Assembly (NCBI GenBank): GCA_963781585.1
Contig: CAWAGQ010000016.1
Coordinates: forward strand, 1-64,000
Reading direction: 5' to 3'
Source: an uncultured Gemmatimonadaceae bacterium
GTDB lineage: Bacteria; Gemmatimonadota; Gemmatimonadetes; Gemmatimonadales; Gemmatimonadaceae
Length of the DNA: 64,000 nt
Made by a program: the position numbers and the translations under genes. The notes under the pieces are model-generated. The model worked only from the letters and a program-made list of their open reading frames with translations. It did not search any database and was not told the origin of the DNA. Below are positions 8,633 to 64,000 of this stretch, piece after piece; the stretch's first letter is position 1, and each line of letters begins with the position of its first letter.

Positions 8633-9427
8633 TTACTTCATTCGCGCCTTCATGTCATCACCCCAGATCGCCCTGGGGTCGTCGCCTACAAACAGGTACA
8701 CGTGCGCCATCCAGCCGAACAGGCGGGAGATGAAGCGCCCGCCCGCTGTGTCGCACGCGGAACGGGTGGTAATGCGCAGCCATCTGGCCACCGCCGCGCC
8801 ATCGACCTTCTGCCGTCCCGCGCGCACGTCGTCGGGCCAGGGGCCGCAGAAGTTCACGTGCTCGTGCCAGTGCGCCATGCCTGACGGGAGACGCGCGTCC
8901 AGTTCCTCCGGCGTGGCATCCGGAGGCGCCGTGTACATCGCGCCGACCAGGACCAGTTTCCCCTTCGCATCGCGGCGGTAGAGCAGCGACGTGGGATGCA
9001 TGGGGTCCATGACGTACCCGGCCGCGTAGGCGTGCTGGTAGTTGGTGTAATGATAGATCGGCTGTGGCTCCACGTTAGGCAGGAAGCGGACGTACCCATC
9101 GGCCTCCGCAAGCCGGACGTCCCGGTACTTCGCCAGAGCCTGCCTGGCCACGCGTACGAGCTCGGCGGCCCGGGCCGAATCGGCCCGCGTGGCGGCGCGA
9201 CGCGGCGCCATGTGCATGTGCGCGTTCTCGTCGCTCAGCAGTTCCCGGATGGCCGCCGCGAGCTCCGGACTGTGCTCGCTCCCGAGGGCGTCCAGCGCCC
9301 CGATACGTCCGCTCAGCCGGCTGGAATCGCGCCCCAGGGTGACCACCTGGGCGCGGACGACCGACGCCGAAACCGTCAGGGCTGCGGCAACAACGCCGAG
9401 AAGGCGGGAAATCGCGGGTCGGGGCAA
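8633..9427 (-). CDS. Secreted His/Met-rich hypothetical protein
   Basis: Signal peptide ending VRA|Q; HMHM, YHY, PTSLLY, HWHEHVNFC and WMAHVY motifs. Confidence 0.7.
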   Translation of the reverse strand: MPRPAISRLLGVVAAALTVSASVVRAQVVTLGRDSSRLSGRIGALDALGSEHSPELAAAIRELLSDENAHMHMAPRRAATRADSARAAELVRVARQALAKYRDVRLAEADGYVRFLPNVEPQPIYHYTNYQHAYAAGYVMDPMHPTSLLYRRDAKGKLVLVGAMYTAPPDATPEELDARLPSGMAHWHEHVNFCGPWPDDVRAGRQKVDGAAVARWLRITTRSACDTAGGRFISRLFGWMAHVYLFVGDDPRAIWGDDMKARMK

Positions 9428-9682
9428 TGGGATGGCGGTCGCGATGTGGTCGTCGGGGCGCTGGGACCTGAACGGACGTCGCCCTCGCCGGGACGGCGCC
9501 GTCGAGAGGCCGCGCCGGGTGCGCGCGACGACACTACCTACTCAGCGGTCCTGCCTCCGGTTCCGTACCAGTCGAGAGGGCGCTTCGCGCCGACAAGCCA
9601 CGCCCCTTGCGGCGAGCAACCGCGCGGCGAAACATAACGTGCCCCCATTCGGCGATGCCCCATCGCTCCGGAGGAATGATGT

Positions 9683-9717
9683 CTGAAAGGTCAGAGGCCA
9701 AAGGCCACACGCCACCG
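9683..9717. repeat. Degenerate 7-bp tandem repeat (GCCACAG-like, 5 units)
   Basis: CTGAAAG GTCAGAG GCCAAAG GCCACAC GCCACCG; reverse complement resembles (CTGTGGC)3 at 37637. Confidence 0.5.
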
Positions 9718-9720
9718 GCC

Positions 9721-14543: not shown

Positions 14544-15245
14544 TCAGAGGTGTTGTAGCGGCGTTTCGCCCGGGTCCTCGCGCTTTTCCGCCTGTCGCTC
14601 CCACGACTTCTGCACCATCTCCTTGGACCCGAGTCCCACGGCCAGCGACAGGGCCAGCACGATGCCGCCGAAGAGAATGCCAAACGCGAGGGTGAGGACC
14701 TCGCCGCCGATGCTCAGGTGGTTGAGCGCCATGGTGGCGGCGAGCACCAGAACCAGCCATTTCACGCCGACGCTGAGCAGTTTGGCCGACCGGATCTGCA
14801 TGTTGACCGCACCGATCAGGACGCTGCGGCCGAGGAAGCGCGCCACCAGCCCTCCGATCAGCAGCAGCAGGATGGCCACGAAGACGTTAGGCAGGTACTC
14901 GAGCAGGCGGCCCACGATCATCGACATCTCGCTGGGCGCGATGGCGGCCAGTCCCACCAGCAGCCCCAGGAAGACGACCACCCAGAATACGACCTGACCG
15001 ACCAGCCGGGCCGGGCTCCGCGCCGGGGAGAAGTCGGCGAGCACGCCGAACCCGAGTCGCTCCAGGCGTTCGTCGAAGCGCACACCACGCAAGGCCCTGC
15101 TCAGTAGCGCCCGTACGACCCATCCCAACAGCGCTGCCACCAGCAACGCCACCAGCAGGGCCACCACCCCCGGCAGGACGCTCGCCACGCCGGTGAGCAT
15201 TCGACTCGCCGACTGGCGGAGCGCGTCATTGACCTGGCTCCACAT
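14544..15245 (-). CDS. Small mechanosensitive channel-like TM-helix protein (no MscS cytoplasmic cage)
   Basis: Repeated YLPN/LPG-x-helix units; AFGILFGGIVLALSLAVGLG motif; GGAGGAAGG RBS. Confidence 0.85.
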   Translation of the reverse strand: MWSQVNDALRQSASRMLTGVASVLPGVVALLVALLVAALLGWVVRALLSRALRGVRFDERLERLGFGVLADFSPARSPARLVGQVVFWVVVFLGLLVGLAAIAPSEMSMIVGRLLEYLPNVFVAILLLLIGGLVARFLGRSVLIGAVNMQIRSAKLLSVGVKWLVLVLAATMALNHLSIGGEVLTLAFGILFGGIVLALSLAVGLGSKEMVQKSWERQAEKREDPGETPLQHL

Positions 15246-15275: not shown

Positions 15276-16571
15276 TCAGGGGCTGAATCGGTCCGGCCAC
15301 CGCCAGCGCGAAATCAAGTAAGGTTTCTCCGCCTCGAACCGCAAGCAGAGTCGGTCCAGCCGCTCCTCGGACTCGGCGAACGTCGCCGTCTGCGTCTCGC
15401 TGACGAAAGACGCAACCCATCCCGAGAAGAGCGGCGCGAACGCGGCCAGCAGATGATCGCGGCTGAGACGCCGCTCGTGAAAGGCCGCCGAGAAGTCGTA
15501 CACGAGCCGGGCCCACAACTCGTCGGGGATGCGGAAGACGGAATCGTCGAGGCCGGCCAGCCGGTGCAGGTCGAGCAGCGTCCGCGGCGGCAGCACCAGC
15601 TGCCAGATCTCGCCGAGGTTCTTCTGCCCCAGGCGAAACGACTCGACCCCGTGCCTAACGTCAACGGTCACCGCCGACTCGTCGCCGGCGGCCACCCCGC
15701 CGAACATCCGCACCGGTTCCGATCCGCGTACTTTCTGCCAGACCGCCTGCCAGCGCTCCACGCCCTGATAGAGCGCGCTGAGTACCTTCGCGACCGCCTC
15801 GCTGGGGTCGGCGCCGGTATCCTTCCACCCCTGGCGCTTCACGCCCATCATCGCTTCACCGACCCGCGCGCCCTCGCAAATCGCCCGCGTGGCCAGCCAG
15901 ATGTCCACGCTCGACTTCACTTCATCGGTCTGCCAGGCGGGATCCGGCAGGCACTTGTCGATGAATCGCATCGCGCAGGCGAAGTCGCCGCCGATCGGAT
16001 AGCGCACCCGTTTTCCGTACAGCGCGCGCACCAGCGGATACGCCACGCCGTTGTTGATGGCGCCGCCAAAGCGCGGGCGAAGGTAGTACGGTGCCACCAG
16101 ATCGTAGTCCCGCTCCAGAATCGGGGACACGAGCCCGTGCAGCCAACCGGGCGCGAAGTGCGCGACATCCACGTCCACCACTGCGCACACCTTCGCGCCC
16201 ACGCGTCGCGCTTCGGTGAACACCGCGCGCACCGCATTGCCCTTGGCCGGTACCCCGCGGTAGGGACCGCCCAGCTTGTCGACGGCGTCGAGTGGATACG
16301 TGAGCGAGACCAGCGACACTCCGGGGGTCTGGAGTTCGGCCACCCGCTCCACGGTTCCGTCGCTGGACCCGCCATCCGCATGCACGATCGTACAGGTCGC
16401 GCTGCCGAGATACTCGGCACAGGCCGCCTGTACCGCCGCCACCGCCTCCCGGATGCTGTCCACGTTGTTATAAGTAGGCATGCCGACAACCACGTCAGCC
16501 GCTTTCACCTCCACGGCCGCCACCGCAGTGCCCTGCGGCTCGGAGGGCGTCGCCACGTTCGTCATCTCCAT
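15276..16571 (-). CDS. GT-A glycosyltransferase, glucosylglycerate/mannosylglycerate synthase-like (possibly degenerate)
   Basis: VVVGMPTYNN, ADGGSSDGT, KGNA, VDVD, YPLVRALYG, PIGGDF and DIW motifs. Confidence 0.8.
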   Translation of the reverse strand: MEMTNVATPSEPQGTAVAAVEVKAADVVVGMPTYNNVDSIREAVAAVQAACAEYLGSATCTIVHADGGSSDGTVERVAELQTPGVSLVSLTYPLDAVDKLGGPYRGVPAKGNAVRAVFTEARRVGAKVCAVVDVDVAHFAPGWLHGLVSPILERDYDLVAPYYLRPRFGGAINNGVAYPLVRALYGKRVRYPIGGDFACAMRFIDKCLPDPAWQTDEVKSSVDIWLATRAICEGARVGEAMMGVKRQGWKDTGADPSEAVAKVLSALYQGVERWQAVWQKVRGSEPVRMFGGVAAGDESAVTVDVRHGVESFRLGQKNLGEIWQLVLPPRTLLDLHRLAGLDDSVFRIPDELWARLVYDFSAAFHERRLSRDHLLAAFAPLFSGWVASFVSETQTATFAESEERLDRLCLRFEAEKPYLISRWRWPDRFSP

Positions 16572-18884: not shown

Positions 18885-22235
<3,351 letters not shown>

Positions 22236-22394: not shown

Positions 22395-23504
22395 ATGACC
22401 GCCGCTTCCCCCGACTGGCACGATCTTGGCGCCGACGACGACTTCCGTCGGAGCCCCGTCACCGCCGCACACATCGGCCGCCTCCGACTCGCCGTGACGT
22501 GCCGGGATGGCGAATTCGGCGTCATCTCCGGCGTGTGCAACCACAAGGGCGGCCCGTTAGGCGAGGGACGGTTGATCGGCGACTACGTGAACTGCCCGTG
22601 GCACAACTACAAGTACCATCGGACAACCGGTCTCGGCGAACCGGGCTACGAGGGGGACGCGGCGCCGGCCTACCAGGTGAAGGTCGAGAGCGGACGGTTG
22701 CTGGTGGACCTGGCGTCGGGCACCAAACGCACCCACCTCCACCACGATCCGCATCCGCTCTCCCGCCCGATCGAGCGCGCCCCCGGCCGCGTGCGCGTGG
22801 CCGGCATTTCGACCACCAACATGGACGTCGCCAATCCGCGGTACTCCACGTCCGACGCCCTGCTCGACGTTGCGCTCGACTACGCCGGCCGGGAACTGGA
22901 CGTCGAGACCCGCCTGGTCCGGCTCGCCACCCTCCAGTTCCGCCAGTGCGAGGGCTACTACTCCAAGAGCGCGCACGCCTGCACCTGGCCCTGCTCCATC
23001 ACGGAGATGGATCCCGCCGACCAGATGGCCGAGGTGTACGAGGCGGTCGTGCACTGGGCGGATGTCATTCTGGTCGCGACGCCCATCCGGTGGGGAAATG
23101 CGTCAGCGCTCTACTACAAGATGGTCGAGCGGATGAACTGCGTGCAGAATCAGGTCACGATCAACAATCGCGTCCTGGTGCGGAACAAGGTCGCGTCGTT
23201 CATCATCACCGGCGGTCAGGACAACGTGCAGATGGTCGCCGGCCAGATGCTCATGTTCTTCTCGGAAATCGGCTGCCACTTTCCGCAGTTTCCGTTCATC
23301 GCGCATTCGCGGGGGTGGAGCGCCGAGGACATGGAACACAACATCGACTTCGTGATGATGAGCGATGATCTGCGCGAAGGGGCGCGGATGCTGGTCGCCC
23401 GCGCGGTCGATATGGCGCACCTGCTGCTCGAGCACGAGAAGGCGCCCCATGTGGTGGCGCGCGGCGGACGGAAGGCGCACCAGTTGACGCTGACGGGTGG
23501 GTGA
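22395..23504 (+). CDS. Rieske [2Fe-2S] domain fused to NAD(P)H-dependent FMN reductase/iron-sulfur flavoprotein-like domain
   Basis: CNH...CPWH Rieske ligands; flavodoxin fold with ATPIRWG and a CEGYYSK..CTWPC Cys cluster. Confidence 0.85.
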   Translation: MTAASPDWHDLGADDDFRRSPVTAAHIGRLRLAVTCRDGEFGVISGVCNHKGGPLGEGRLIGDYVNCPWHNYKYHRTTGLGEPGYEGDAAPAYQVKVESGRLLVDLASGTKRTHLHHDPHPLSRPIERAPGRVRVAGISTTNMDVANPRYSTSDALLDVALDYAGRELDVETRLVRLATLQFRQCEGYYSKSAHACTWPCSITEMDPADQMAEVYEAVVHWADVILVATPIRWGNASALYYKMVERMNCVQNQVTINNRVLVRNKVASFIITGGQDNVQMVAGQMLMFFSEIGCHFPQFPFIAHSRGWSAEDMEHNIDFVMMSDDLREGARMLVARAVDMAHLLLEHEKAPHVVARGGRKAHQLTLTGG

Positions 23505-23510
23505 GGTGCG

Positions 23511-24380
23511 CTACACGGCCGTCAGCACTCTCCGGCACGACTCCATCGCCGCCTCCACGTAGGCCGTCACGGGCGCCCGCTGCCCGGCGTCCGGCGCCAA
23601 CGTCACGAGCTCGGTGAGCGTCAGGACACCGCCCACCCAGCCGGTGGTGTGCCAGTGCCCCAGTGGGAGCGGGCCCAGCGTGGCGGGGTCGGGATGCGGA
23701 TACGGCCCCACGTAGAAGTACGGCTCCTGATAGGAATCGTCGCCCGGCGACAGCCCCACGCCGATGGTCCGTCCCGAACCGTCGGAGGCCGGCGGCAAGG
23801 TGACCAGCGTGGCCAGGTCGAAATGGTGTGGCCAGCACCGCGTGGGCGACGCGCCCGGGGTGCGCGACTCGATCGCCGACGCCACCAGCCAGGCGTCGTG
23901 GTAGGCGCCTGCCAGGACTTCGAACGCGGCAGCGTCGCCGCGCTGCCAGGGAGCGCCGGTGGCCACCGCATGGGCCGGTATCTCGTAGTGCTTCTTCGTC
24001 GTTAGGCGCACGGGATCGAGCCCCTGACGCTTCAGCTCACTCGACAGCCACTGGAGCGCCTGCGGCAGCGCCTTCCCGTCCAGCGGGAACGAGGACCGCA
24101 CCACGTCGCCCGCCAGCGACAGGAGTGTGAGATCGTGCACCCGGAGCGCAAAACGGAGACCGACCGCATCGGCGATGACGTTGGTAGCCAGCGCCCGCCA
24201 CTGCGGAAGCCACTCCATGTTGGTGTGGCTGTCATCGGCCCTGGCCGGCAGGTACGAGATCGCCGCCGACACGTTGATCTGGGCGGCGTGGTGCAGCTGC
24301 AGCCGCGCGTCCGTCAGCCGCGCGGCAGCGATCACCGTCAGCGTGCGCCAGTCGTCGCCGCGCGTACGCAATTCCGACAT
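23511..24380 (-). CDS. Conserved hypothetical protein (DUF5996-like)
   Basis: DDSHTN, WPHHFDLA and GLSPGD..Y.EPYFYV.P motifs. Confidence 0.7.
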   Translation of the reverse strand: MSELRTRGDDWRTLTVIAAARLTDARLQLHHAAQINVSAAISYLPARADDSHTNMEWLPQWRALATNVIADAVGLRFALRVHDLTLLSLAGDVVRSSFPLDGKALPQALQWLSSELKRQGLDPVRLTTKKHYEIPAHAVATGAPWQRGDAAAFEVLAGAYHDAWLVASAIESRTPGASPTRCWPHHFDLATLVTLPPASDGSGRTIGVGLSPGDDSYQEPYFYVGPYPHPDPATLGPLPLGHWHTTGWVGGVLTLTELVTLAPDAGQRAPVTAYVEAAMESCRRVLTAV

Positions 24381-48746: not shown

Positions 48747-48791
48747 GAGGCTGCTCGTGGGGAGTGATTTGTCGCCCCGGCGCGACCGCGA

Positions 48792-48820: not shown

Positions 48821-49122
48821 TGTGTTACTGGCCTCCTAAGTCATTTACTTCCAGACTTTTATCGACTCATGGACGCCGCCGGCCCCGATCGCGGCCCGGC
48901 GCCAAAGCCGTGGCCTGACTTCGGCGTCTGTTCGGGTGCCTACCGGACCACCCTCTTCCACCCTCGCGCCACCCATTCCGCCCTCGCTCGTTAGGCCCGG
49001 ATGGCGTGCAATTCCCCTCCACCCCGCGCCAGACCGCCGGCCTCGGCGCTCGCGTCGCAGCACCTGGGTCTTTCGTCAGTGCGCGGATGCGATACTTTCG
49101 GACAGCCCTTCCAGGAGATCGA

Positions 49123-50307: not shown

Positions 50308-51884
50308 CCGCGCGAGCGGGCGACCCGGCAGCGGTTCTCGCGGGCCCGCCCGCCGGCGCCGCCACCGTCGCACCCTCCCCCCACACGACGCGCGAGATCG
50401 CGCACTTCATCGGCGGCAGCGCCACCGGTGGGTCGAACGATCGCGCCGGTCCGGTCTTCGACCCGTCCACCGGCAACGTCACCGCACACGTGCGCTTCGC
50501 CTCAGCCGGCGACGTGGCCGCCGCGGTCGACAGTGCCCGGCACGCGTATGAGGAGTGGAGCGCGCTGTCTCCGCTGAAACGGGCGCAGGTGATGTTTCGC
50601 TTCCGGGAGCTCATCCAACAGGATGCCGATCACCTTGCGCACCTCATCTCCTCGGAACACGGCAAGGTACTCTCCGACGCGCGCGGTGAGCTTCAGCGCG
50701 GCGTCGAGGTCGTGGAGTTTGCCTGCGGCATTCCACACCTCCTCAAGGGCGAATTCTCCGCCGGCGTGTCCCGCGGCGTGGACATGTACTCGCTGCGCCA
50801 GCCGCTGGGAGTGGTGGCGGGTATCACGCCATTCAACTTTCCGGCGATGGTTCCGCTCTGGATGCTCGCGCCGGCCATCGCTTGCGGAAACACCTGCCTC
50901 CTCAAGCCCTCGGAAAAGGACCCCAGCTGTCCGGTGCGCCTCGCCGAGCTCCTTGTGGAGGCTGGAGCGCCGCCGGGCGTGCTCAACGTCGTGCATGGAG
51001 ACCGCGAAGCGGTAAACGCGCTGATCGAACATCCCGCCGTGGTGGCGGTGAGCTTCGTCGGATCCACGCCGATTGCCCGACACGTGTACGCCACGGCGGC
51101 GGCGCATGGCAAACGGGTCCAGGCGATGGGAGGTGCCAAGAATCATCTGGTGGTTTTGCCCGATGCCGACCTCGAACAGGCGGCCGATGCACTGATCGGC
51201 GCCGCCTTCGGCTCCGCCGGCGAGCGTTGCATGGCGGTCTCGGTGGCGGTGCCCGTGGGCGACGCCACGGCCGACGCGCTACGCCGATTGCTCGTGGACC
51301 GACTGGAGAACCTGGTGGTGGGCCCCTCTTCCGACCCGCGAGTCGACATGGGGCCCCTGGTCACCGCCGAGCACCGGGCACGGGTCGCGGAGTCCGTTGC
51401 CTCGGGCGCGCGCGAGGGTGCCGAGCTGGTCGTGGACGGACGGTCTGTCCGCGTGAGCGGTCACGAAAATGGCTTCTTTCTCGGCCCCTGTCTGTTCGAT
51501 CACGTCACCCGCCGGATGGGCATCTACGCCGAGGAGATCTTCGGGCCCGTGCTGTCGATCGTACGCGCTGGCGACTTCGATGACGCCATCGGGCTGGCCA
51601 GCGATCATCGCTATGGCAACGGCGTCTCCGTGTTCACCCGCAGCGGCGCGGCAGCGCGTGATTTCGTCGATCGCGTCGAGGCCGGCATGGTGGGTGTCAA
51701 CGTTCCCATTCCGGTGCCGCTGGCCTTCTACTCGTTCGGCGGATGGAAGGAGTCGATGTTCGGCGATCACAACCAGCACGGCATGGACGGCGTCCGATTC
51801 TTCACGAAGGTCAAGACCGTCACCTCGCGCTGGCCGGCGGCGGCGCCCGGTGGATCGGACTTCTCGATGCCGACGCTGCGTTAG
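50304..51884 (+). CDS. mmsA: CoA-acylating methylmalonate/malonate-semialdehyde dehydrogenase
   Basis: ITPFNFPAMVP, KPSEKDP, FVGST, GGAKNH, GSAGERCMA, EIFGP and GVNVPIPVP motifs. Confidence 0.95.
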   Translation: MTARAGDPAAVLAGPPAGAATVAPSPHTTREIAHFIGGSATGGSNDRAGPVFDPSTGNVTAHVRFASAGDVAAAVDSARHAYEEWSALSPLKRAQVMFRFRELIQQDADHLAHLISSEHGKVLSDARGELQRGVEVVEFACGIPHLLKGEFSAGVSRGVDMYSLRQPLGVVAGITPFNFPAMVPLWMLAPAIACGNTCLLKPSEKDPSCPVRLAELLVEAGAPPGVLNVVHGDREAVNALIEHPAVVAVSFVGSTPIARHVYATAAAHGKRVQAMGGAKNHLVVLPDADLEQAADALIGAAFGSAGERCMAVSVAVPVGDATADALRRLLVDRLENLVVGPSSDPRVDMGPLVTAEHRARVAESVASGAREGAELVVDGRSVRVSGHENGFFLGPCLFDHVTRRMGIYAEEIFGPVLSIVRAGDFDDAIGLASDHRYGNGVSVFTRSGAAARDFVDRVEAGMVGVNVPIPVPLAFYSFGGWKESMFGDHNQHGMDGVRFFTKVKTVTSRWPAAAPGGSDFSMPTLR

Positions 51885-51957
51885 GCGGTCCTCAACACCT
51901 CCGGAATCCGCTCATCGCACGGTCGCGCGAACCACGCCGCCCCAGGGGTGGCGACCG

Positions 51958-53304: not shown

Positions 53305-53407
53305 GGGACGGATCTCCGGCGAACGCGTTGACGAATGGACGAACGGCCTGATCAAACGCGATTATGGCGCCCGACGCCGCTGGGCGCCAGCGCCTAACGA
53401 CTCCTGG

Positions 53408-54205
53408 TCAGGGCGGTGGCGCCCCGACCGCCTGGGGCGCCCCCCGATCCCGCAACCCGATGCGTTCCCGCACTCCGCGGTCGTCCCCGCTCTCGAGCCG
53501 CGTCTCCTCCTCGTGCTCCCGCTCGGCGACCCCGCGTTCGATGGCTTCCCGTTCCGCCCGGTACCGCTGGTACCACTCGCGGGTCACCTGACCGGCCAGC
53601 TCACGGTTCCCCAGACCGAACGCCAACGCCAGGCCAAACGCCACCGCCCCGAACAGGATGGCGAAGGCCGTGGTCACGATATCGGTGGCGATCCCCAGCT
53701 CCTGCAGCGCCATGAAAATCGACAGCATCACCACCCCCCACCGCCCAACTCGCGCCAGCGTGGGTGCGCCCTGCACCGCTCCGGCCGACGCCATGATCAG
53801 CCCACCCACGAATCGCCCCAGCACGATTCCCACGATCATGATCACCACCGCCGACATCAGGCTCGGCAGGTACCCCACCAGCTCGCCGAAAACCCCCGCC
53901 AGCGACTCCATACCCAGCGTGTTCGCAGCCACAATGATCACCGCGAACATCACGATCCAGAACAGGGTTTTCCCGATGACGCGCGTCGCGTTGAAGTGCG
54001 CCCCACCGCGTTCCACCGCCTCCATCACCCCGCCGCGCTCCAGCAGGTCGTTCAGTCGGAGGCGGTGCAGCACCCGTTCGGCGCCTTTCTCCATCAGCTT
54101 GGCCAGCAGGTATCCGGCGAACAGGATGATGAGCGCGCCCAGCAGCGCCGGAATGACGTCGGCGAGCTGGGCGAAACTTCCCTGCAGGCGCTCGAGGAAG
54201 GACAC
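53408..54205 (-). CDS. Small mechanosensitive channel-like TM-helix protein (paralog of 14544-15245)
   Basis: YLPSL repeat; AFAILFGAVAFGLALAFGLG motif. Confidence 0.88.
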   Translation of the reverse strand: MSFLERLQGSFAQLADVIPALLGALIILFAGYLLAKLMEKGAERVLHRLRLNDLLERGGVMEAVERGGAHFNATRVIGKTLFWIVMFAVIIVAANTLGMESLAGVFGELVGYLPSLMSAVVIMIVGIVLGRFVGGLIMASAGAVQGAPTLARVGRWGVVMLSIFMALQELGIATDIVTTAFAILFGAVAFGLALAFGLGNRELAGQVTREWYQRYRAEREAIERGVAEREHEEETRLESGDDRGVRERIGLRDRGAPQAVGAPPP

Positions 54206-54902: not shown

Positions 54903-55943
54903 TCAGGAGATCCTCACCACCACCTTGCCGAACTGATTCCCCGACTCCAGGCGACCGAGCGCATCACGCCCCCGATCGAGGGAGTATACGGAATCGACGA
55001 CCGGCGCCAGGCGCCCGGCCAGGAATTCCCTCGTGATCGCGTCGAATTCAGCGTTCGTCCCCATTGTCGACCCCATGATCGTCCATTGATTCCAGAACAC
55101 CCGGCGCACGTCCATCGTGACTACCGGCCCCGAGGTCGCCCCGCAGGTCACCAGGCGCCCCCGCCGCCCCAGTGCACCTAACGACTGACTCCAGGTGGCC
55201 TCGCCCACGTTGTCGATGACCACGTCCACCCCGCGCTTGCCCGTGCGTGCACGAATTGCCTTGCCGAGATCCACGTCCGGTCCGTGGCGAAGTGTCTCGT
55301 CCGCCCCGATCGCCCTCGCCCGCGAGAGCTTCTCCTCGCTGTGCGACGTGACCCAGACGTGCGCGCCCATCGCCTTGCAGATCCGGAGCGCGGCCAGCGC
55401 CACGCCACCGCCGATGCCCCAGATCAGCACCGTATCGCCGGCGCGAACGCGGGCGCGCGTCACGCACATCCGCCACGCCGTGAGGGTCGCCAGCGGAAAC
55501 GCGGCCGCCGCCTCCATCGGGCTGTCCGGTGGAATGACGCGAACGTTTCCTTCCGGCACCACCACGTAGTCAGCGAGCGTGCCCGGCAGATGTTCGCCGA
55601 GGATGCGGAATTTCAGGCACAGGGGAGCCTCATCCGCCAGGCAGTACTCGCACCGGCCGCAGCCGATGCCGGGATTGATGATCACCGCGTCGCCCGGTCG
55701 CACCCGCTGCACCTCGCTCCCCACCACGTCGATCACGCCAGCACCGTCGCTGCCCAGCGTCCAGGGCGCCGAGAGCACGACGCCCGGCACACCGTGCAGC
55801 GTCCACAGATCCACGTGGTTGAGCGCCGCGGCTCGCAGGCGCACGCGAACCTCGTTCGGCTGCGTAATGGCTGGTGTCGGCAGGTCGTCACGCAGGCGAA
55901 CCTGCTCCAGACCGCCGTGCCCGTCGATGGTGAGCGCTCGCAC
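54903..55943 (-). CDS. Zinc-binding alcohol dehydrogenase/quinone reductase (MDR family)
   Basis: AALNHVD, LGSDGAG, structural Zn CGRCEYC..C, GIGGGV and FGKVV motifs. Confidence 0.92.
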   Translation of the reverse strand: MRALTIDGHGGLEQVRLRDDLPTPAITQPNEVRVRLRAAALNHVDLWTLHGVPGVVLSAPWTLGSDGAGVIDVVGSEVQRVRPGDAVIINPGIGCGRCEYCLADEAPLCLKFRILGEHLPGTLADYVVVPEGNVRVIPPDSPMEAAAAFPLATLTAWRMCVTRARVRAGDTVLIWGIGGGVALAALRICKAMGAHVWVTSHSEEKLSRARAIGADETLRHGPDVDLGKAIRARTGKRGVDVVIDNVGEATWSQSLGALGRRGRLVTCGATSGPVVTMDVRRVFWNQWTIMGSTMGTNAEFDAITREFLAGRLAPVVDSVYSLDRGRDALGRLESGNQFGKVVVRIS

Positions 55944-56027
55944 CCGGTTCTTCTGCCGTTATATTGACCGTCGCCGGCGGCGCCACCGCCCGTGCGCGCG
56001 ACCGCTCACGCCCCCGCAACGCCCCGC

Positions 56028-57365
56028 ATGATCTCGATCAAAGTGCCCCCGCTCGGCGAGTCGATCGTCGAGGCAACGGTCTCCCGCTGGCTGAAGGAAG
56101 AGGGGGACGCTGTGGCGCCCGGGGAGACGCTGGTCGAACTCGACACCGATAAGGTAACCGTCGAGGTCCCGGCCGCAAAAGCCGGTGTGCTCGTCAGGCG
56201 CTTGCATCAGGAAGGCGACGTGGTCAAGGTCGAGGATCTCCTCGCTGAGGTCGATGACGCGGCGGCACCGGCGTCGATCGCCAGCCGCAGCAGCTCCGAC
56301 GCCGCGGCACCCCCTGCCGTGACTGGAGAATCGCCGGGCCACGGTGACAGGGCCGGCGAGCCGCCCGCCGCCCGCCGCCAACCGGAAGCCGTTGCGGCAG
56401 TGAATGCCGCCGTGCGTGCCTCGCCGGGCGCGCGCCGCGCGGCCGCGGCCGCGGCGGTCGATCTCGCCGCGGTACCGGGGACCGGACGTGGCGGCGTGGT
56501 CAGCAAGCCGGATCTCGTCGACTACCTCCGGGCCGCGAAGTCCGCGGAGCCGGCGCCCGCAGGCGCACCACCCTCCCGGGGAGCACCGGACGTCGAGGTC
56601 GTGCGCCCGGAGCCGCCGAGGGCATTCCCGTCCATCATCGGGGTCCCGTACGCCGCCGGGGAGGGGGGCGATCGTGAGACACGCGAGCGAATGTCCACCC
56701 GCCGCAAGCGGATCGCCGAGCACCTCCTGGAAGCGCAGCACGCCACCGCCCACCTCACGACGTTCAACGAGATCGACATGTCAGCGGTGGAATTGCTGCG
56801 CAAGCGGGTCCGGGAGCGCATCGAGCAGGAGCACGGCGTACGGCTCACGTTCATGCCGTTCTTCGTGCGCGCCGCCTGCCTGGCGCTGCGCCAGTACCCG
56901 ATGCTGAACGCGCTGGTGGATGGCGATGAGATCGTGTACCGGCACTACGTCAACATGGGGATCGCGGTCGCGGCCGATGGCGGCCTGGTCGTACCGAACG
57001 TAAAGGACGCCGACCGGAAGGGACTGCTGCAGATCGGTCAGGAGATCGCCGATCTGGCGGCCCGGGCTCGCGACGCCAAGCTCACCATGGACGACCTCAC
57101 TGCGGGGACGTTCACCATCACCAACGGCGGCGTCTTCGGCTCGCTGGTTTCGACGCCGATCCTCAACTACCCGCAGGTCGCCATCCTCGGCCTCCACAAG
57201 ATCCAGGATCGACCGGTCGCAATCGCGGGCAAGGTCGAGATCCGGCCCATGATGTACGTCGCGCTGTCGTACGACCACCGGATCATCGACGGCCAGTACG
57301 CAGTGCTCTTTCTCGTTAGGGTGAAGGAGCTCCTCGAGGACCCGGCCCTGATGGTCGTCGACTGA
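56028..57365 (+). CDS. sucB: Dihydrolipoamide succinyltransferase (E2)
   Basis: Lipoyl domain LGESIVEA...TDKV; E3-binding [30 protein letters not shown] and SYDHRIIDG motifs. Confidence 0.93.
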
Positions 57366-58250: not shown

Positions 58251-59660
58251 TTGCCTCCCGATTCTCTGCCGGCTGATGTCGTCATTCTCGGCGGCGGGCC
58301 CGGCGGATACGTAGCCGCCATCCGGGCAGCCCAGCTCGGCTTGCAGACGGTCTGCGTGGAGATGGACCGTACCCTCGGCGGCACCTGCGTCAATGTCGGC
58401 TGCATTCCATCCAAGGCTCTGCTCCAGTCATCGGAGCACTACGAGTTCGCAGTGCTCCACGCGCTCGAGCACGGCATCGATTACGAGGCCGCCCGCCTGA
58501 ATCTGGGACAGATGCAGAAGCGCAAGGATCAGGTGGTGGCGCAGAACACCCGGGGCATCGAGTATCTGTTCCGGAAGAACCGGATCACCTGGGCGAACGG
58601 CCAGGGAACGCTTCACCCCGGCAACATGGTCGAGGTTCACGGTGTGGACGGCACGACCACCCGCTATCAGGCGCGACACGTGATTCTCGCCACCGGGTCG
58701 GTTCCGGTCGAGCTCCCGTTCCTGCCCGTCGACGAAGAGCATGTGGTGTCGAACATCGGCGCGCTCCGGTTTGCGGCGGTGCCGAGGCACCTTGTCGTCA
58801 TCGGAGCCGGCGCGGTCGGCCTCGAACTTGGCTCGGTCTGGCGCCGGCTGGGCGCGAAGGTCACGGTGGTCGAGTTCATGCCGACGATCCTGCCGGGCAA
58901 CGATGATGAGATCGTGCGTGAAGCGCAGCGCGTGTTTCACCGGCAGGGTCTCGAGATCCACGGCGCCGCGCGGGTGACCGGCGCCGAGTTCGATGCCGAG
59001 CGGATCGTCGTGCATGTCGAAGAGGAGGGCGCGGCCCGTACGTTCGACGCCGATCGCGTGCTCGTTGCGGTGGGCCGGCGGCCGGCCCTCACCGGCGTCG
59101 ATGCGGTTTCCCTCGGGCTCGCCCTCGGGCCGGGTGGGGAGATCGTCGTCGACGACCGCATGCGCACCAACCTGCCTAACGTTTTCGCTATCGGTGACGT
59201 GGTCGGGGGCAGGCTCCTGGCCCACAAGGCGGAGGAGGAGGGCGTGGTGGCCGCGGAAGTCATTGCCGGCCTGCCCTCGCGCATGCACTACCACTCCATT
59301 CCCAATATCGTCTACACCTGGCCCGAGATCGCGACCGTCGGCCTCACCGACCGCGAAGCGCGTGACGCCGGGCGCAAGGTTCGGGTTGGTCGCTTTCCGT
59401 TCTCCGCCAATAGCCGCGCCCGCACCATGGGAGAGTCGAGCGGATTCGTGAAACTCATCGCCGATGCGGACACCGACGAGCTCCTGGGGTGCCACATGAT
59501 CGGCCCCAACGTGTCGGAGCTGATCGCCGAGATCGTGCTGGCGTTCGAGTATCGCGGCGCGGCGGAAGATGTCGGCCTCACCGTGCACGCGCATCCCACC
59601 CTGTCGGAGGCAACCAGGGAGGCCGCGCTGGCCGTGCTGGGGAGAGCCGTGCACATCTGA
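58251..59660 (+). CDS. lpdA: Dihydrolipoamide dehydrogenase (E3)
   Basis: GGGPGGY, GGTCVNVGCIPSK, GAGAVGLE and HAHPTLSE motifs. Confidence 0.97.
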   Translation: MPPDSLPADVVILGGGPGGYVAAIRAAQLGLQTVCVEMDRTLGGTCVNVGCIPSKALLQSSEHYEFAVLHALEHGIDYEAARLNLGQMQKRKDQVVAQNTRGIEYLFRKNRITWANGQGTLHPGNMVEVHGVDGTTTRYQARHVILATGSVPVELPFLPVDEEHVVSNIGALRFAAVPRHLVVIGAGAVGLELGSVWRRLGAKVTVVEFMPTILPGNDDEIVREAQRVFHRQGLEIHGAARVTGAEFDAERIVVHVEEEGAARTFDADRVLVAVGRRPALTGVDAVSLGLALGPGGEIVVDDRMRTNLPNVFAIGDVVGGRLLAHKAEEEGVVAAEVIAGLPSRMHYHSIPNIVYTWPEIATVGLTDREARDAGRKVRVGRFPFSANSRARTMGESSGFVKLIADADTDELLGCHMIGPNVSELIAEIVLAFEYRGAAEDVGLTVHAHPTLSEATREAALAVLGRAVHI

Positions 59661-59733: not shown

Positions 59734-60489
59734 GTGACCGCACCCTTCGCCTCCGTTCTCTTCGACTGCGATTCCACCCTCTCCACCATCGAGGGCATCG
59801 AGGAGCTGGCGGTCACGCATCGCGACGAGGTCAGCGCCCTCACACACGCGGTCATGGACGGGCGCGTTCCGCTCCAGGATGCCTACGGACGGCGGCTCGC
59901 GCTGATCCGTCCCACCCGCGCCGATCTCGATCGCCTCGCGCGCCAATACGTGGAATCCCTCGTCGACGACGCGCGCGCCGTGGTGGCCGGTCTGCAGGCA
60001 CTGGGCGTCTCCGTGCGGATCATCTCGGGAGGGCTCCGGCCGGCTGTCCTCGCGGTCGCCCACGCGTTAGGTGTGGCGCCGCGCGACGTCGCCGCGGTCG
60101 ATATCCGGTTCGATGACGCCGGCGCGTATGCCGGGTTCGACACGACGTCCCCCCTTGCGCGCGCCGGGGGAAAGCGCGACCTCATTGTGGCGTGGCAGGG
60201 ATTGGAGCGGCCGGCCATGCTGGTCGGGGACGGGGCGACGGACCTCGAAGCGCGCGACGCGGTCGACTGCTTCGTGGCCTACGCCGGAGTGGCCGCCCGA
60301 CCGGCCGTGGTCGCCGGCGCGGATGTCGTGGTCCGTTCCCGGTCCCTGGCACCGGTCTTCGCGCTTGCCCTCGGCGAGCAGAGACCTAACGATCCTCACT
60401 TCAACGATCTCTACGATCGGGGCGTACGGCTCCTGCACGGCGCCGTCTCCGCTCCGGCCCGTCCGTCACCTTCTCGATCGCCTTCATGA
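59734..60489 (+). CDS. serB: Phosphoserine phosphatase (HAD IB)
   Basis: FDCDSTL, ISGG, GK and VGDGATD motifs; operon with serA. Confidence 0.85.
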   Translation: MTAPFASVLFDCDSTLSTIEGIEELAVTHRDEVSALTHAVMDGRVPLQDAYGRRLALIRPTRADLDRLARQYVESLVDDARAVVAGLQALGVSVRIISGGLRPAVLAVAHALGVAPRDVAAVDIRFDDAGAYAGFDTTSPLARAGGKRDLIVAWQGLERPAMLVGDGATDLEARDAVDCFVAYAGVAARPAVVAGADVVVRSRSLAPVFALALGEQRPNDPHFNDLYDRGVRLLHGAVSAPARPSPSRSPS

Positions 60490-61616
60490 CCACCACCGTC
60501 GGTACGCGATCCCGCAGCGACGCCGTCGCCGGGACGTTCGGTCGCTTCTTCCTCCCGGGCCCCACCGAGGTTCGCCCGGAAATCCTCGCGGCAATGACCC
60601 GGCAGATGATCGGCCACCGTGGCGCCGACATCGAGTCCCTGCTGGAGCGCATCGCGCCCCGGCTGCAGCAGGTGTTCCGCACGGCACAACCGGTGTTTAC
60701 CGCAACCTCGTCGGCCACCGGGCTGATGGAAGCCGGCGTACGCAACGCCGTGCGCTCGCGCCTCCTGTGTCTGGTGAACGGCGCCTTCAGCGCGCGCTTC
60801 TACAAGGCGGCCGTCAACTCCGGCGTCGCCGTGGACAAGCTCGAGGTCGAGCCGGGCCGCATGCACACGCCCGACCTGCTCACCGACGCGCTGCGTCGCG
60901 GCACATACGACGCGGTGACGGTCGTGCATTCCGAAACCTCCACCGGGGTCCTCAACCCGATTCGGGAGCTCACCGACGCTGCCCACGCTGCCGGCGACGT
61001 CGCCGTCATCATCGACACCGTGTCGAGCATGGCCGCGGCCCCGGTCGAAGTGGATGCGTGGGACCTCGACTACGTGCTCACCGGATCGCAGAAGGCACTC
61101 GCCCTTCCCCCCGGACTGGCGTTCTGCACCGCCAACGAGCGCGTGTTCGAGCGCGCGCGCGCCAGCGGCAACCGCGGCCTGTACTTCGACCTCCTCGAGT
61201 TCCACGACTACTGGAAGAAGAACCAGACCCCGAACACGCCGGCCGTGTCCCTGCTCTACGCCCTCGACGCCCAGCTCGATCATATCCTGGCGGAAGGTGT
61301 GGAGGCGCGATGGGCGAGGCACGCCGAGATGGCGCGGCGCACGTGGTCGTGGGTGGACGGGCAGCGCGCAGCCGGGCGCGACATCCATGTGCTGGCGCCC
61401 GAGGGATACCGCTCTCCCGCGGTCACCTGTGTCTCGGCGCCGCCCGGTAAGACCGGATCGCAGATCGCCGCCGCCATGAAGGCCCGCGGTTACGTGATCT
61501 CCACCGGCTACGGCCCGATGAAGGATGCGATGGTGCGGGTGGGCCACATGGGCGACCACACCGTCGACGAACTCAACGCCCTGCTCGACACGTTAGGCGG
61601 AGTGCTGGCGGCATGA
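60486..61616 (+). CDS. Class V (alanine-glyoxylate-type) aminotransferase, probable phosphoserine aminotransferase role
   Basis: LPGPTE, HSETSTG, DTVSS, GSQKALALPPG and RVGHMG motifs; lies between serB and serA. Confidence 0.88.
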   Translation: MTTTVGTRSRSDAVAGTFGRFFLPGPTEVRPEILAAMTRQMIGHRGADIESLLERIAPRLQQVFRTAQPVFTATSSATGLMEAGVRNAVRSRLLCLVNGAFSARFYKAAVNSGVAVDKLEVEPGRMHTPDLLTDALRRGTYDAVTVVHSETSTGVLNPIRELTDAAHAAGDVAVIIDTVSSMAAAPVEVDAWDLDYVLTGSQKALALPPGLAFCTANERVFERARASGNRGLYFDLLEFHDYWKKNQTPNTPAVSLLYALDAQLDHILAEGVEARWARHAEMARRTWSWVDGQRAAGRDIHVLAPEGYRSPAVTCVSAPPGKTGSQIAAAMKARGYVISTGYGPMKDAMVRVGHMGDHTVDELNALLDTLGGVLAA

Positions 61617-63208
61617 GCGGCACCTATTCGGTGCTGGTCGCCGACGCGATCGCCGTCGACGGCCTGGCTCCGCTGCGCGACGATCCCCGCTTCGAGCTGG
61701 TCGTCCGGCCAGGCCTCAAAGGCGAGGAGCTCGCCGATGCCATCGCCGGGGCCGACGCGGTGCTGGTGCGGAGCGCCACCCGCATCACGCGCGAATCACT
61801 GGCCCGCGCGAACCGGCTCAAGGCCATTGGTCGGGCCGGCGTCGGCGTCGATACCATCGACGTCGACGCGGCCACCGAGCGCGGCATCCCCGTGCTCACG
61901 GCGCCCGCCGGCAATACGACCTCGGCCGCCGAGCTCACCTTCGCCCTCCTGCTGGCCCTCGCCCGACGAGTGGCCGCCGCCGACCGGTCAATGAAATCGG
62001 GCGAGTGGGACAAGAAGTCCTTCACCGGGATCGAACTGTACGGCAAGACGCTGGGTTTGATCGGCGCCGGTCGGATCGGCGGCGAAGTGGCGCGTCGCGC
62101 CCGCGCCTTCGGCATGCGGGTGGTGGCGTATGATCCGTTTCTCAACGCTGAACGCGCTCGCGTGCTCGACGTGGAAGTAGGATCGCTCAACGAGGTCTTC
62201 GAGCGGTCGGATGTGGTATCCGTACACGTCCCGCTCACGGAGGTGACCAGAAACCTCGTCGGCCCCGCTGAGATCGCGAAGATGAAGACCGGCGCCCTGC
62301 TCCTCAACGTGGCTCGCGGTGGTGTGATCGACGAAGACGCCCTCGTGGACGCCCTGCGGTCGCGCAAGCTGGGCGGCGCCGCGCTCGACGTGTTCGCGAC
62401 CGAGCCGCTCCCACCCGACCATCCGCTCCGCACCCTTCCCAACGTCGTACTCACGCCCCACCTGGGCGCCTCCACCGCCGAGGCGCAGCATAACGTGGCG
62501 ATCGAGATCTCCGAAGCGGTACGCGCCGCCCTCGTGGATGGCGACCTGTCCCGCGCCGTGAACGCACCGGCGGTGGGTGGCGAGGAGATGCGCCGGCTTC
62601 GGCCGGTCCTCGCGCTGGCGGAGCGACTCGGGGTGCTCGGCGCGGCCCTGGCCGGCGGGCCGCTTACCCGCATCGCCGTACACTACGCGGGCGCGTCGTC
62701 ATCCGGGCTCCACCTGATCGCTGCGTCGGCGGTGGCGGGTGCCCTCTCGCGCGTCTCCGGCGGTGCCGTGAATCTCGTGAACGCCCGGAGGCTCGCGCAG
62801 TCACGTGGCATTCGTGTCGAGGAGGCGCATGAACCGGCGATCGCGCCGTACGCCGAATCCGTGGATCTGGAGGTGGCCAGCGATGCCGGACACGCCCGCA
62901 TCACCGGTGCCGTGCTGGGGGAATCACACGAGCGCATCGTGCGCGTCGACGAATTTCATGTCGACATCGCACCGCGCGGCACGATCCTTGTGCTCCGGAA
63001 CCGCGACGTCCCGGGTGTCATTGGCCAGGTCGGCACCGCGCTCGGACACGCCGGGATCAACATCGCGGAGTACCACCAGGCGCGTCAGGGAGCCGGCGGT
63101 GATGCGCTCGCCCTCGTGAGCGTCGATGGTGCGGTGGCCGATGAGCAACTCACCGCCCTCCGGTCGCTCCCGGACGTGCGCCACGTGCAGCAGATAGAGC
63201 TGCGTTGA
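61613..63208 (+). CDS. serA: D-3-phosphoglycerate dehydrogenase
   Basis: VRSAT, RAGVGVD, GAGRIG, NVARGG and TPHLGAST motifs; C-terminal ACT (DVPGVIG). Confidence 0.96.
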   Translation: MSGTYSVLVADAIAVDGLAPLRDDPRFELVVRPGLKGEELADAIAGADAVLVRSATRITRESLARANRLKAIGRAGVGVDTIDVDAATERGIPVLTAPAGNTTSAAELTFALLLALARRVAAADRSMKSGEWDKKSFTGIELYGKTLGLIGAGRIGGEVARRARAFGMRVVAYDPFLNAERARVLDVEVGSLNEVFERSDVVSVHVPLTEVTRNLVGPAEIAKMKTGALLLNVARGGVIDEDALVDALRSRKLGGAALDVFATEPLPPDHPLRTLPNVVLTPHLGASTAEAQHNVAIEISEAVRAALVDGDLSRAVNAPAVGGEEMRRLRPVLALAERLGVLGAALAGGPLTRIAVHYAGASSSGLHLIAASAVAGALSRVSGGAVNLVNARRLAQSRGIRVEEAHEPAIAPYAESVDLEVASDAGHARITGAVLGESHERIVRVDEFHVDIAPRGTILVLRNRDVPGVIGQVGTALGHAGINIAEYHQARQGAGGDALALVSVDGAVADEQLTALRSLPDVRHVQQIELR

Positions 63209-63288
63209 CCCGCGGCCCTGCCGACAGCCCGTGGCGCAGGGCCGGGGCGGGCCGCATTGTGATTGAACAATCGTGCTTGCGGTCCCGC

Positions 63289-64000
63289 CTAACGAGTGCC
63301 GGCCGGAGCGTGCCGGAGTCGTGCCTCCACGAACAGCTGCCGACCCGTGAACGCCGGCCAGTCGGCACCGACCTGGCGGTTCAGCAGGTTCGTCATCCCC
63401 GCGACGAGGTCCACGCCGAGGGGCATGTCGCGCTCCACTCGGGCGTCGAGGCGAAGGAACCCGCCCCGCTCCCGGGAAATCGTCCCATCGGGGTCACGCG
63501 TCACCGCCGTGCGCCCGGTGTAGACCGCGTTCAGACCGCCCTGCACGCCAAGCGCCGCCGGACCCGACAGGCCGAGGCGCGCGGTGACGCCGGGCCGCCC
63601 CAGCAGCGGCGTGCCCGTTGACGCGTCCCTCGTGCGCAGGAGCTCCGAGGTGGCGTCGATACGCCAGGTGCCGGCCAGGATCCCGCCTTCCAGATCGACT
63701 CCCCGCGTGGAGCCGCGCGCGATGTTGTCGTAGGTGTAGGTGAAGCTCGCGTCAGGCGCGCCCGTCTCGATGAAGTCGCGGTAGCCGTTCCAGAAGGCCG
63801 TCGCCCGTCCGTAGAGCCGGGCCGCGGTCCACTCCGCACCGAACGAGGTCGTCAACGAGCGTTCGGGCCGGAGCGCCGGATTGCCGATCACCGAATATCC
63901 CACCGCATCATTCACGAAATGCAGGTAGAGTTCCTTGAAATCGGGGGCGCGGAATCCGCGCCCGACCGACGCCCGCAACGCGAGCGCGCTGGCAGGGCGA
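63289..64000 (-). CDS. TonB-dependent receptor, C-terminal part (runs off the window)
   Basis: RGFRAP.FKELY, GNPALRPE, NI...TRGVD, NLLN and GRQLF motifs. Confidence 0.9.
   Translation of the reverse strand, partial: RPASALALRASVGRGFRAPDFKELYLHFVNDAVGYSVIGNPALRPERSLTTSFGAEWTAARLYGRATAFWNGYRDFIETGAPDASFTYTYDNIARGSTRGVDLEGGILAGTWRIDATSELLRTRDASTGTPLLGRPGVTARLGLSGPAALGVQGGLNAVYTGRTAVTRDPDGTISRERGGFLRLDARVERDMPLGVDLVAGMTNLLNRQVGADWPAFTGRQLFVEARLRHAPAGTR

Follow-up and report, generated by a model that had tools for sequence, protein, structure and literature searches.

A hyper-abundant non-palindromic eight-base word in Gemmatimonadales genomes, a possible DNA-uptake or recombination tag that coincides with the integron core site

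Copies of a short word, CGTTAGGC, are scattered through the genes and spacers of a 64,000-nucleotide stretch of DNA from an uncultured Gemmatimonadaceae bacterium, referred to here as the window (positions 1 to 64,000 of contig CAWAGQ010000016.1, or C16:1-64000 of a 5.72-Mb genome bin in 17 contigs, G000). Comparison with gyrA-flanking sequence in public records likewise assigns the bin to the Gemmatimonadaceae. The word is non-palindromic, differing from its own reverse complement. A preliminary description of this DNA had counted by eye 21 copies of its first seven bases, CGTTAGG, and all 21 were recovered at the same positions and on the same strands, against a mean of 2.85 (standard deviation 1.84, largest value 10) in dinucleotide shuffles of the window, none of which (0/100) reached 21. 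As reported, the eighth position is occupied by C in 16 copies, by T in four and by G in one. The remark that only about eight other TTAG tetramers occur proved exact, since 21 of the 29 found on both strands (67.8 expected) lie inside the word, and the assumed G+C content of about 68% is close to the 0.63-0.70 observed. The copies are as follows.

9073..9080, plus strand: CGTTAGGC; the minus-strand gene 8633-9427 reads CTG-CCT-AAC-GTG (Pro-Asn)
14885..14892, plus strand: CGTTAGGC; the minus-strand gene 14544-15245 (mechanosensitive-channel family) reads CCT-AAC (Pro-Asn)
15653..15660, minus strand: CGTTAGGC; GTT-AGG (Val-Arg) in the minus-strand gene 15276-16571 (glycosyltransferase 2)
22555..22562, plus strand: CGTTAGGC; CCG-TTA-GGC (Pro-Leu-Gly) in gene 22395-23504 (Rieske/FMN reductase); kept in relatives G001, G024 and G009
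24000..24007, plus strand: CGTTAGGC; non-coding by our own calls, or xGC-CTA-ACG (Leu-Thr) if the minus-strand open reading frame (ORF) 23511-25142 is real; kept in G001 and G024
25147..25154, plus strand: CGTTAGGC; CCG-TTA-GGC in gene 24627-25937; kept in G001, absent at the site in G024 and G009
25690..25697, plus strand: CGTTAGGC; CCG-TTA-GGC in gene 24627-25937; kept in G001; CGATCGGC in G024 and CACTCGGC in G009
28045..28052, plus strand: CGTTAGGC; GCG-TTA-GGC in gene 26907-28163 (GCS2 family); the only one of seven sites lost in G001
29375..29382, plus strand: CGTTAGGC; TCG-TTA-GGC in gene 28915-30510 (OpuAC/permease); kept in G001 and G024
30227..30234, plus strand: CGTTAGGC; GCG-TTA-GGC in gene 28915-30510; kept in G001 and G024; CGCTTGGC in G009
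42283..42290, minus strand: variant CGTTAGGT; CCG-TTA-GGT in the minus-strand gene 42001-43254
48989..48996, plus strand: CGTTAGGC; non-coding, in the spacer between gyrA (46221-48809, minus) and an aminotransferase gene (49006-50307, plus)
51879..51886, plus strand: CGTTAGGC; CGT-TAG, the stop codon of an aldehyde dehydrogenase gene ending at 51884
53392..53399, minus strand: CGTTAGGC; non-coding, in the spacer between genes 51958-53355 and 53408-54205
55176..55183, minus strand: variant CGTTAGGT; TCG-TTA-GGT in the minus-strand gene 54903-55943 (zinc alcohol dehydrogenase)
57314..57321, plus strand: variant CGTTAGGG; GTT-AGG (Val-Arg) in gene 55992-57365 (2-oxoacid dehydrogenase E2)
59174..59181, minus strand: CGTTAGGC; the plus-strand gene 58251-59660 (dihydrolipoyl dehydrogenase type) reads CCT-AAC (Pro-Asn)
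60065..60072, plus strand: variant CGTTAGGT; GCG-TTA-GGT in gene 59734-60489
60384..60391, minus strand: variant CGTTAGGT; the plus-strand gene 59734-60489 reads CCT-AAC (Pro-Asn)
61591..61598, plus strand: CGTTAGGC; ACG-TTA-GGC in gene 60486-61616
63287..63294, minus strand: CGTTAGGC; CGT-TAG, the stop codon of a minus-strand TonB-dependent receptor gene starting at 63289 in window coordinates

No copy lies in the first 9 kb of the window. The codon contexts agree with those first described (ten x-Leu(TTA)-Gly, four Pro-Asn, two Val-Arg, two intergenic and two TAG stops), and the single Leu(CTA)-Thr copy, at 24000, holds only if the ORF around it, which has no Pfam match, is a real gene.

Across G000, CGTTAGGC occurs 1442 times (724 forward, 718 reverse) and CGTTAGG 1706 times, where base composition predicts 217 copies of CGTTAGGC and Markov models of order 1, 2 and 3 predict 89, 44 and 51. 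The excess thus survives on the whole genome (1442 vs 44-51 for orders 2-3) as well as under codon-aware comparison, the controls that had been proposed for it, and at about 28-fold, or about 30 times expectation, CGTTAGGC is the most over-represented 8-mer in G000 among words with at least 100 copies. This amounts to roughly one copy per 4 kb, and relatives reach about 1.4 per kb. The position before the word (-1) disfavours C (11%) and the position after it (+8) favours a purine, in the 212 non-coding copies as in the rest; beyond these two positions the flanks of all copies in G000 hold no information, unlike the conserved flanks of repetitive extragenic palindromes or miniature inverted-repeat transposable elements. 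The word is therefore D-CGTTAGGC-R and no part of a longer repeat.

The word has 24 one-off neighbours. Relative to order-2 expectation in G000, CGTTAGGT (183 vs 24), TGTTAGGC (79 vs 15) and CGTTATGC (180 vs 38) are about 5-8-fold in excess, CGTCAGGC 2.7-fold (1519 vs 557) and CGTTAGGG 2.0-fold; CGTTAGGA, GGTTAGGC and AGTTAGGC are at or above expectation, and the remaining 16 of the 24 fall below it. CGTTATGC, which has a weak flank of its own (C-t-CGTTATGC-g), may be a weaker variant of CGTTAGGC or a separate word.

Gene-based counts refer to our own codon-score gene calls for G000, which are uncurated (4438 genes, 85% coding). On these calls the copies are distributed as follows.

xCG-TTA-GGC: 762 copies, 15.7% of [ASTP]-L-G tripeptides (762/4867)
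G-CCT-AAC-G (antisense): 274 copies, 24% of P-N-[VADEG] (274/1140)
CTA-ACG: 65 copies, 2.6% of permissible sites
GTT-AGG: 31 copies, 0.9% of permissible sites
Non-coding: 212 copies, share not applicable
Overlapping gene ends: 98 copies, share not applicable

The word lies on the sense strand in 793 of 1132 coding copies, and the tripeptides that permit a sense-frame copy are about four times as numerous as the antisense ones. More than half of all TTA codons in the genome, 762/1360 (56%), fall inside the word, a fraction that the preliminary description had singled out as informative, as do 69 of 1337 TAG and 43 of 339 TAA stop codons. A missing tRNA was considered as the cause of the low use of the CTA frame (2.6% vs 15.7%) and rejected because tRNA-Leu(UAA) and tRNA-Leu(UAG) are both present in G000; the flank preference accounts for the difference only in part. 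Copies are uniform along genes, and their density is higher in non-coding than in coding DNA (0.36 and 0.23 per kb), with spacers ranked convergent (3') at 0.55, tandem at 0.37 and divergent at 0.19 per kb. The proteins of G000 show no dipeptide distortion, with Leu-Gly at 0.98 and Pro-Asn at 1.03 of expectation, and hints of distortion appeared only in small samples of richer genomes. A search of G000 with ARAGORN also returned a tRNA with anticodon TTA, which would read the stop codon TAA, at C14:156433-156507 (minus) in a word-free 20-kb stretch.

The word is conserved between relatives beyond what its surroundings would lead one to expect. In the 21-31 kb stretch of the window, six of the seven sites are kept in the congener G001 (84% identity), four of six alignable sites in G024 and one of four in G009; the sites not shared in this stretch differ by several bases, with no single fixed transition. 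Over 343 kb aligned between G000 and G001 (87.9% identity), 61 sites are shared, 17 are found in G000 only and nine in G001 only, against 40.4% of positions at which any 8-mer is fully kept (binomial p = 2e-11). Where the two genomes differ, the commonest alternative is CGTTAGGT (10/26). At conserved Leu-Gly tripeptides all eight bases were identical in 36 of 42 word-coded cases vs 62 of 189 otherwise coded, and at conserved Pro-Asn in 7 of 8 vs 11 of 33; pooled, the counts are 43/50 vs 73/222 (Fisher p = 4e-12), such that synonymous positions are kept 2.6 times better within the word.

An uncontrolled first count gave 564 vs 452 copies with respect to the G-rich strand. When replication direction was taken from smoothed skew and gene strand was controlled, the sense:antisense ratio was 331:143 on the leading and 217:90 on the lagging strand, and non-coding copies were split 111:108, indicating no polarity, while GGGNAGGG, a positive control in the same test, gave 470:213. 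An apparent all-plus run on contig C1 of the relative G043 is most likely an artefact of listing order; in G000 polarity is absent. Because both orientations are enriched and replication polarity is lacking, the word acts on double-stranded DNA, not on protein or RNA. The earlier proposal that selection or drive acts on the DNA rather than the protein is thereby supported, with four reading frames and non-coding DNA all in use and synonymous positions conserved.

Copies also keep their distance from one another. Compared with random choice among permissible sites (500 draws), gaps shorter than 100 bp numbered 1 vs 20.5±4.4 expected, gaps shorter than 500 bp 32 vs 98.7±8.4, and gaps shorter than 1000 bp 105 vs 184±11. 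The depletion holds within genes (28 vs 86 below 500 bp) and between different genes (33 vs 52.9±6.5 below 1 kb). Around occupied sites, the G+C content of third codon positions (GC3) is raised 10-50 codons away by 1.88±0.14 points over the gene mean (n=742), compared with 0.08±0.07 points around the 3931 unoccupied ones (p about 1e-26 for the difference), and this halo has faded by 100-200 codons; it would fit GC-biased conversion around the word. Together, the interference over about 1 kb and the halo of a few hundred bases suggest a link with recombination tracts.

Gene by gene, the density of the word rises from 0.05 per kb in the lowest GC3 octile (<0.77) to 0.40 per kb in the highest (>0.88). 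The five longest or lowest-G+C deserts that we examined comprise a CRISPR-Cas I-B locus (clustered regularly interspaced short palindromic repeats), giant DUF6603-type genes, the dnaA-dnaN origin block, an arg/his/murB region and ordinary genes. That deserts are mobile DNA was thus only partly true, the origin block and ordinary genes being among them. In the origin-proximal core genes (C8:295000-357000 and the homologous part of C5), GC3 is about 0.70 vs a typical 0.84 and the word is almost lacking.

To describe its distribution, we called a genome rich when it holds more copies of the word than of a reversed control word. Of 41 relatives 12 are rich, with up to 6360 copies in G009, and most others have 6-40 copies vs 100-400 of the control. 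A wider survey of 301 genomes from the phylum found the word in excess of the control in 11/71 genomes of its own family, in 3/125 of a second family (all in genus g79), in none of the three sampled from a third family and in none of the 102 genomes outside the order; three further third-family genomes, in the 41-relative set, are rich. The tallies among the 41 relatives include the unpublished genome G008, and the 301-genome tally includes the unpublished G008, G090, G129 and G208; all four are word-poor, and none of our conclusions rests on them. The distribution of the word is therefore patchy, with presence and absence sometimes alternating inside one genus, and does not extend beyond a single order. 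Within genus g51, for example, G298 is poor (66 copies), in contrast to the rich G245 (3896) and G302 (4141). Recent loss in G298 was considered and dropped, as near-words with at most one mismatch are not in excess there (ratio to control 0.45, vs 0.47 in G003 and 0.34 in G011). Densities form a continuum, with 7-mer counts of 8747 in G045, 994 in G043 and 542 in G044. Rich genomes cluster on a tree of GyrA sequences (4 changes vs 9.3 with shuffled labels) without being monophyletic, and gain or loss of the word is rapid when measured against the age of genera. In culture, Gemmatirosa kalamazoonensis KBS708 represents the rich state, carrying the word on both megaplasmids, with 778 copies in the 1.106 Mb of NZ_CP007129.1 (control 20) and 701 in the 1.04 Mb of NZ_CP007130.1 (control 19), about 0.7 copies per kb on both.

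To our knowledge, words of such abundance have been described in few groups, namely the Neisseriaceae, the Pasteurellaceae and the cyanobacteria. The DNA uptake sequences (DUS) and uptake signal sequences (USS) of the first two are short non-palindromic words present in hundreds to thousands of copies, equally on both strands, spaced more evenly than chance and denser in 3' spacers. CGTTAGGC resembles them in copy number, in its use of both strands, in its placement within genes where the peptide allows, in 3'-spacer density, even spacing and conservation, and in the uptake machinery encoded in the genome. We therefore favour, at a probability of roughly 40%, the reading that the word is a tag of the DNA-uptake or recombination type. 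Uptake or recombination is the most likely process, and a dedicated reader is presumed. DNA uptake biased towards the word would be followed by homologous recombination, as in Neisseriaceae and Pasteurellaceae. A putative reader at the cell surface or in the periplasm, acting together with the type IV pilus, ComEA, ComEC and DprA, would prefer word-bearing fragments; such fragments would replace alleles more often, and the word would spread by molecular drive, possibly aided by selection. It would settle where the protein tolerates it, mainly at x-Leu-Gly, Pro-Asn, stop codons and 3' spacers, and, with a process that acts over stretches of about 1 kb rather than single sites, a second copy within that distance would gain nothing and would not be kept. 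G000 encodes PilMNOPQ, several pilins, ComEC with a metallo-beta-lactamase domain, ComEA and DprA. On and off states with a ten-fold range of density are as expected of a dispensable specificity. PMC7305173 states no more than that soil bacteria commonly have competence and recombination genes.

A number of observations weigh against this reading. The uptake machinery is equally present in word-poor relatives (ComEC in 40/41, PilM in 41/41) and so does not discriminate. Neither of two pilus-linked candidate readers tracks the word: the 716-aa pilus-associated protein of the window is found in 6/12 rich and 17/29 poor relatives, and a 157-aa pilin near an integrase gene has full-length relatives in two rich and eight poor or intermediate genomes. 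DUS come in dialects, whereas the same 8-mer recurs here in three families without any, although most genera, and even some members of a genus that has it, are in the off state, and no alternative word above about 5-fold was found in 400 kb of the poor genome G003. DUS also favour core maintenance genes, whereas the origin-proximal block (dnaA, dnaN, arg, murB) is a desert. Inverted pairs, which serve as terminators in Neisseria, are almost absent, with one convergent pair, the sole terminator-like one, among eight pairs less than 100 bp apart. Proximity to the word, compared with proximity to control sites, brings no reduction in divergence between G000 and G001. Our literature search found no paper on the word, in line with the preliminary description, and none linking Gemmatimonad* with an uptake sequence, and members of the phylum are not known to be transformable. 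Finally, uptake alone leaves unexplained that the word is an integron core site.

A candidate dialect, GTTAGCG, which makes up nine of 13 TTAG occurrences at a gyrA-flank locus (L081), was withdrawn: genome-wide it numbers 423 vs 2424 for the control, it is enriched in 0/41 relatives, and in the genome of that locus (G041) it lies mostly in short tandem arrays of 14-15-bp units. Dozens of G041 loci carry three to five such units, for instance C1:144161-144210 and C1:232566-232616. A search for alternative words in small loci of poor genomes turned up only a CRISPR-like array. At L025:5168-5800, eight copies of a repeat containing GGGGGAACTGCAAGG are spaced 53-159 bp apart, forming either a CRISPR-like array or a tandem one.

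That the word coincides with the core site of integrons had been overlooked in the preliminary description. The core site GTTRRRY and inverse core RYYYAAC, as given in a passage of PMC3053210, are matched by GTTAGGC and GCCTAAC, respectively, and by simple arithmetic only 256 of 65536 8-mers contain such a core 7-mer on either strand. The word also closes actual attC sites. The word-poor G027 carries 24 co-oriented copies of CGTTAGGC within 20 kb (L155, G027:C95:1-20000), each closing an element of about 100 nt with the order R''(GCCTAAC)-L''-loop-L'-R'(GTTAGGC); the elements are homogeneous in sequence and lie 500-650 bp apart with small ORFs between them, and the folding energy of the bottom strand is -33.7 kcal/mol (z = -4.6). 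Another array of G027, on C80, adjoins a partial intI, and in the word-rich G309 R''..R' pairs adjoin intI, such that true attC sites bearing the word occur in both genomes. Further chromosomal cassette arrays were noticed in word-poor relatives at G027:C43 and G025:C3. An integron integrase above the curated cut-off is encoded in 26/41 relatives, including G000 (C7:185885-186829), and in all five of five further genomes, rich and poor. The integrase is unusually common in the order, with up to three copies per genome. The IntI tree is at odds with genus and family membership, which suggests frequent transfer. Since the word closes attC sites and matches the core site, we conclude that it is the integron core site of the order, and yet the integrase does not decide which genomes are rich.

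One might accordingly suppose that an IntI/Xer-type tyrosine recombinase uses the word as its half-site, with thousands of solitary core sites serving as binding or landing sites, for instance for cassettes that insert outside the integron in attG-type events, or bound by a domesticated relative. The core-site match, the attC sites of G027 and the pairs beside intI in G309 speak for this, as does the frequency of the integrase among the relatives. The arm site of such recombinases is about 10 bp long, the size of the footprint D-CGTTAGGC-R. Insertion of cassettes into genomes at attG sites is described in part of PMC12614218. We nevertheless regard this explanation as unlikely. Only eight R''..R' pairs, or 16 of the 1591 7-mer copies with a partner 50-140 nt away, occur in G000, so that at least 99% of copies are solitary, unable to fold as attC, and lie in frame in conserved genes, where landing pads would be harmful. 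Richness does not follow the integrase in presence (above the cut-off in 8/12 rich and 18/29 poor relatives), which led us to reject IntI as the driver; nor in copy number, three in the poor G298 and one each in its rich congeners G245 and G302; nor in phylogeny, the rich label needing 9 changes on a tree of 28 IntI sequences vs 9.5 when shuffled (246/500 shuffles as low); and the only intI of the richest relative, G009, is fragmented. In attC copies C predominates at position -1, and this base is disfavoured in dispersed copies (11%). No mechanism is known to us that would let a recombinase create further sites for itself through point substitution.

It is also conceivable, although we consider it improbable and somewhat more so than the recombinase explanation, that uptake tag and integron core site are one signal, uptake or recombination in some Gemmatimonadales having evolved to favour the core site CGTTAGGC. 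Cassettes, with two copies per about 600 bp, would then be fished preferentially from the environment, and through molecular drive the same preference would have placed thousands of core sites in the genes of the host. If true, this would provide a mechanistic link between natural transformation and the capture of integron cassettes and would explain how an identical, dialect-free word arose in separate lineages. In another connection with recombinases, three copies of a 303-aa tyrosine-recombinase frame with identical scores were found in G000 (C7:172407-173237, C7:183006-183836 and C13:309021-309851), probably an insertion element; relatives of this frame occur in G001, G014 and G027.

The word could instead be the site of a nucleoid or chromosome-organising protein, kept at regular intervals by selection, as has been proposed for the cyanobacterial highly iterated palindrome HIP1 (GCGATCGC). 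According to PMC5861425, HIP1 is over-represented 15- to 300-fold and is conserved in ORFs as well as between them, following neither a peptide nor an RNA logic. CGTTAGGC shares this hyper-abundance (about 28-fold) and conservation and is likewise free of peptide or RNA logic; its copies are spaced out at short range, and both Gemmatirosa megaplasmids carry it at chromosome-like density. HIP1, however, is a palindrome and is reported with a periodicity of 10-90 kb, whereas CGTTAGGC is not palindromic, shows short-range repulsion and a GC3 halo, and has no cognate methylase that tracks it (PF02086 was not searched). The switch-off within a genus (66 copies in G298 vs about 4000 in G245 and G302), the ten-fold variation in density and the 60 kb near the origin without the word are not expected of such a site, which also does not predict a local halo, and we consider it about as unlikely as a recombinase half-site.

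Three further readings are not supported. Of the analogies offered in the preliminary description, those with DUS/USS and HIP1 fit the anatomy of the word, and those with Chi or the FtsK-orienting polar sequences (KOPS) and with a methylase target found no support. A Chi-like signal, which would stop an end-processing nuclease on the cell's own DNA and start RecA loading, could account for a non-palindromic 8-mer over-represented in resident DNA, and its per-fragment logic would also give spacing, yet it is very improbable in view of the missing replication polarity and of an excess, about 28-fold, that the Chi excess of E. coli does not approach. RecC was found in 1/41 relatives and not in G000, which led us to reject RecBCD as the reader, and no AddAB-sized PD-(D/E)XK pair was found in G000, where the sole matches were a Cas4-Cas1 fusion and one weak 576-aa frame.

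We give equally little credence to the word being a selected methylase target or being replenished neutrally by methylase-linked or biased repair, following the very-short-patch logic once proposed for HIP1. The enrichment of the neighbours CGTTAGGT and TGTTAGGC, and the place of CGTTAGGT as the commonest alternative between congeners, would suit it. The methylase families searched are nevertheless uncorrelated with richness and were rejected as the driver (the Dam-type family PF02086 was not searched): C5 methylases (PF00145) occur in five of 41 genomes, 2/12 rich and 3/29 poor; N6_Mtase (PF02384) in 4/12 rich vs 14/29 poor; and N6_N4_Mtase (PF01555) in 3/12 rich vs 13/29 poor, with no match at E ≤ 1e-10 to PF02384 in G000 or to PF01555 in G000 or G001. 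The sole C5 enzyme of G000 is a Dcm-Vsr fusion that adjoins an EcoRII-type restriction enzyme (C7:477213-479892; L147:11213-13892) and belongs to that system. Moreover, the lack of a fixed transition at non-shared sites speaks against such repair, which, acting independently at each site, would not give the spacing. A function in RNA or translation, for instance TTA-dependent pausing or an RNA-binding site, is scarcely credible, for the sense-strand majority of coding copies and the concentration of TTA codons in the word, which would favour it, are set against enrichment of the antisense frame, a higher density in non-coding DNA, a sense excess that is equal on both replication strands where sense tripeptides are commoner anyway, and the presence of both leucine tRNAs.

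Hyper-abundant words are the clearest footprints of uptake, recombination or chromosome organisation shaping whole genomes, and one is now seen in the Gemmatimonadota, an abundant and little-studied soil phylum. The natural on/off contrasts among close relatives allow a phyletic hunt for the reader, and Gemmatirosa kalamazoonensis KBS708, as a cultured carrier, makes the word directly testable. The identity with the integron core site is unexpected and, if not due to chance, bears on the interplay of integrons, transformation and host genomes.

Two collinear origin-type regions of 82-85% nucleotide identity were found in G000, at C8:290000-360000 and C5:283000-355000, each with its own dnaA (94% identical proteins) and a sign change in GC skew, and the contamination of the bin is 7.2%. 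Given the two regions, the bin is probably a composite of two related genomes, both word-rich. Tandem arrays of the heptamer CCAAAGG are present at many G000 loci, the 14-mer CCAAAGGCCAAAGG occurring 115 times; the 9- and 10-mers that rank next in over-representation derive from these arrays.

Several genes of the window are of interest in themselves. Extra type IV pilus minor-pilin-like genes lie at 1187-5339, encoding proteins of 203 aa and 396 aa with prepilin motifs, followed by the 716-aa protein mentioned above. At 18885-22235 an alpha-amylase-family catalytic domain, which we take to be of the trehalose-synthase type, is fused to a maltokinase N-terminal cap domain, and nearby, at 25930-28163, lie genes for a histidine-specific methyltransferase and a GCS2-type ligase, presumably an ergothioneine-type pair. 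At 30573-32426 a fumarase-class lyase carries an N-terminal cyclic-nucleotide-binding domain, an unusual fusion.

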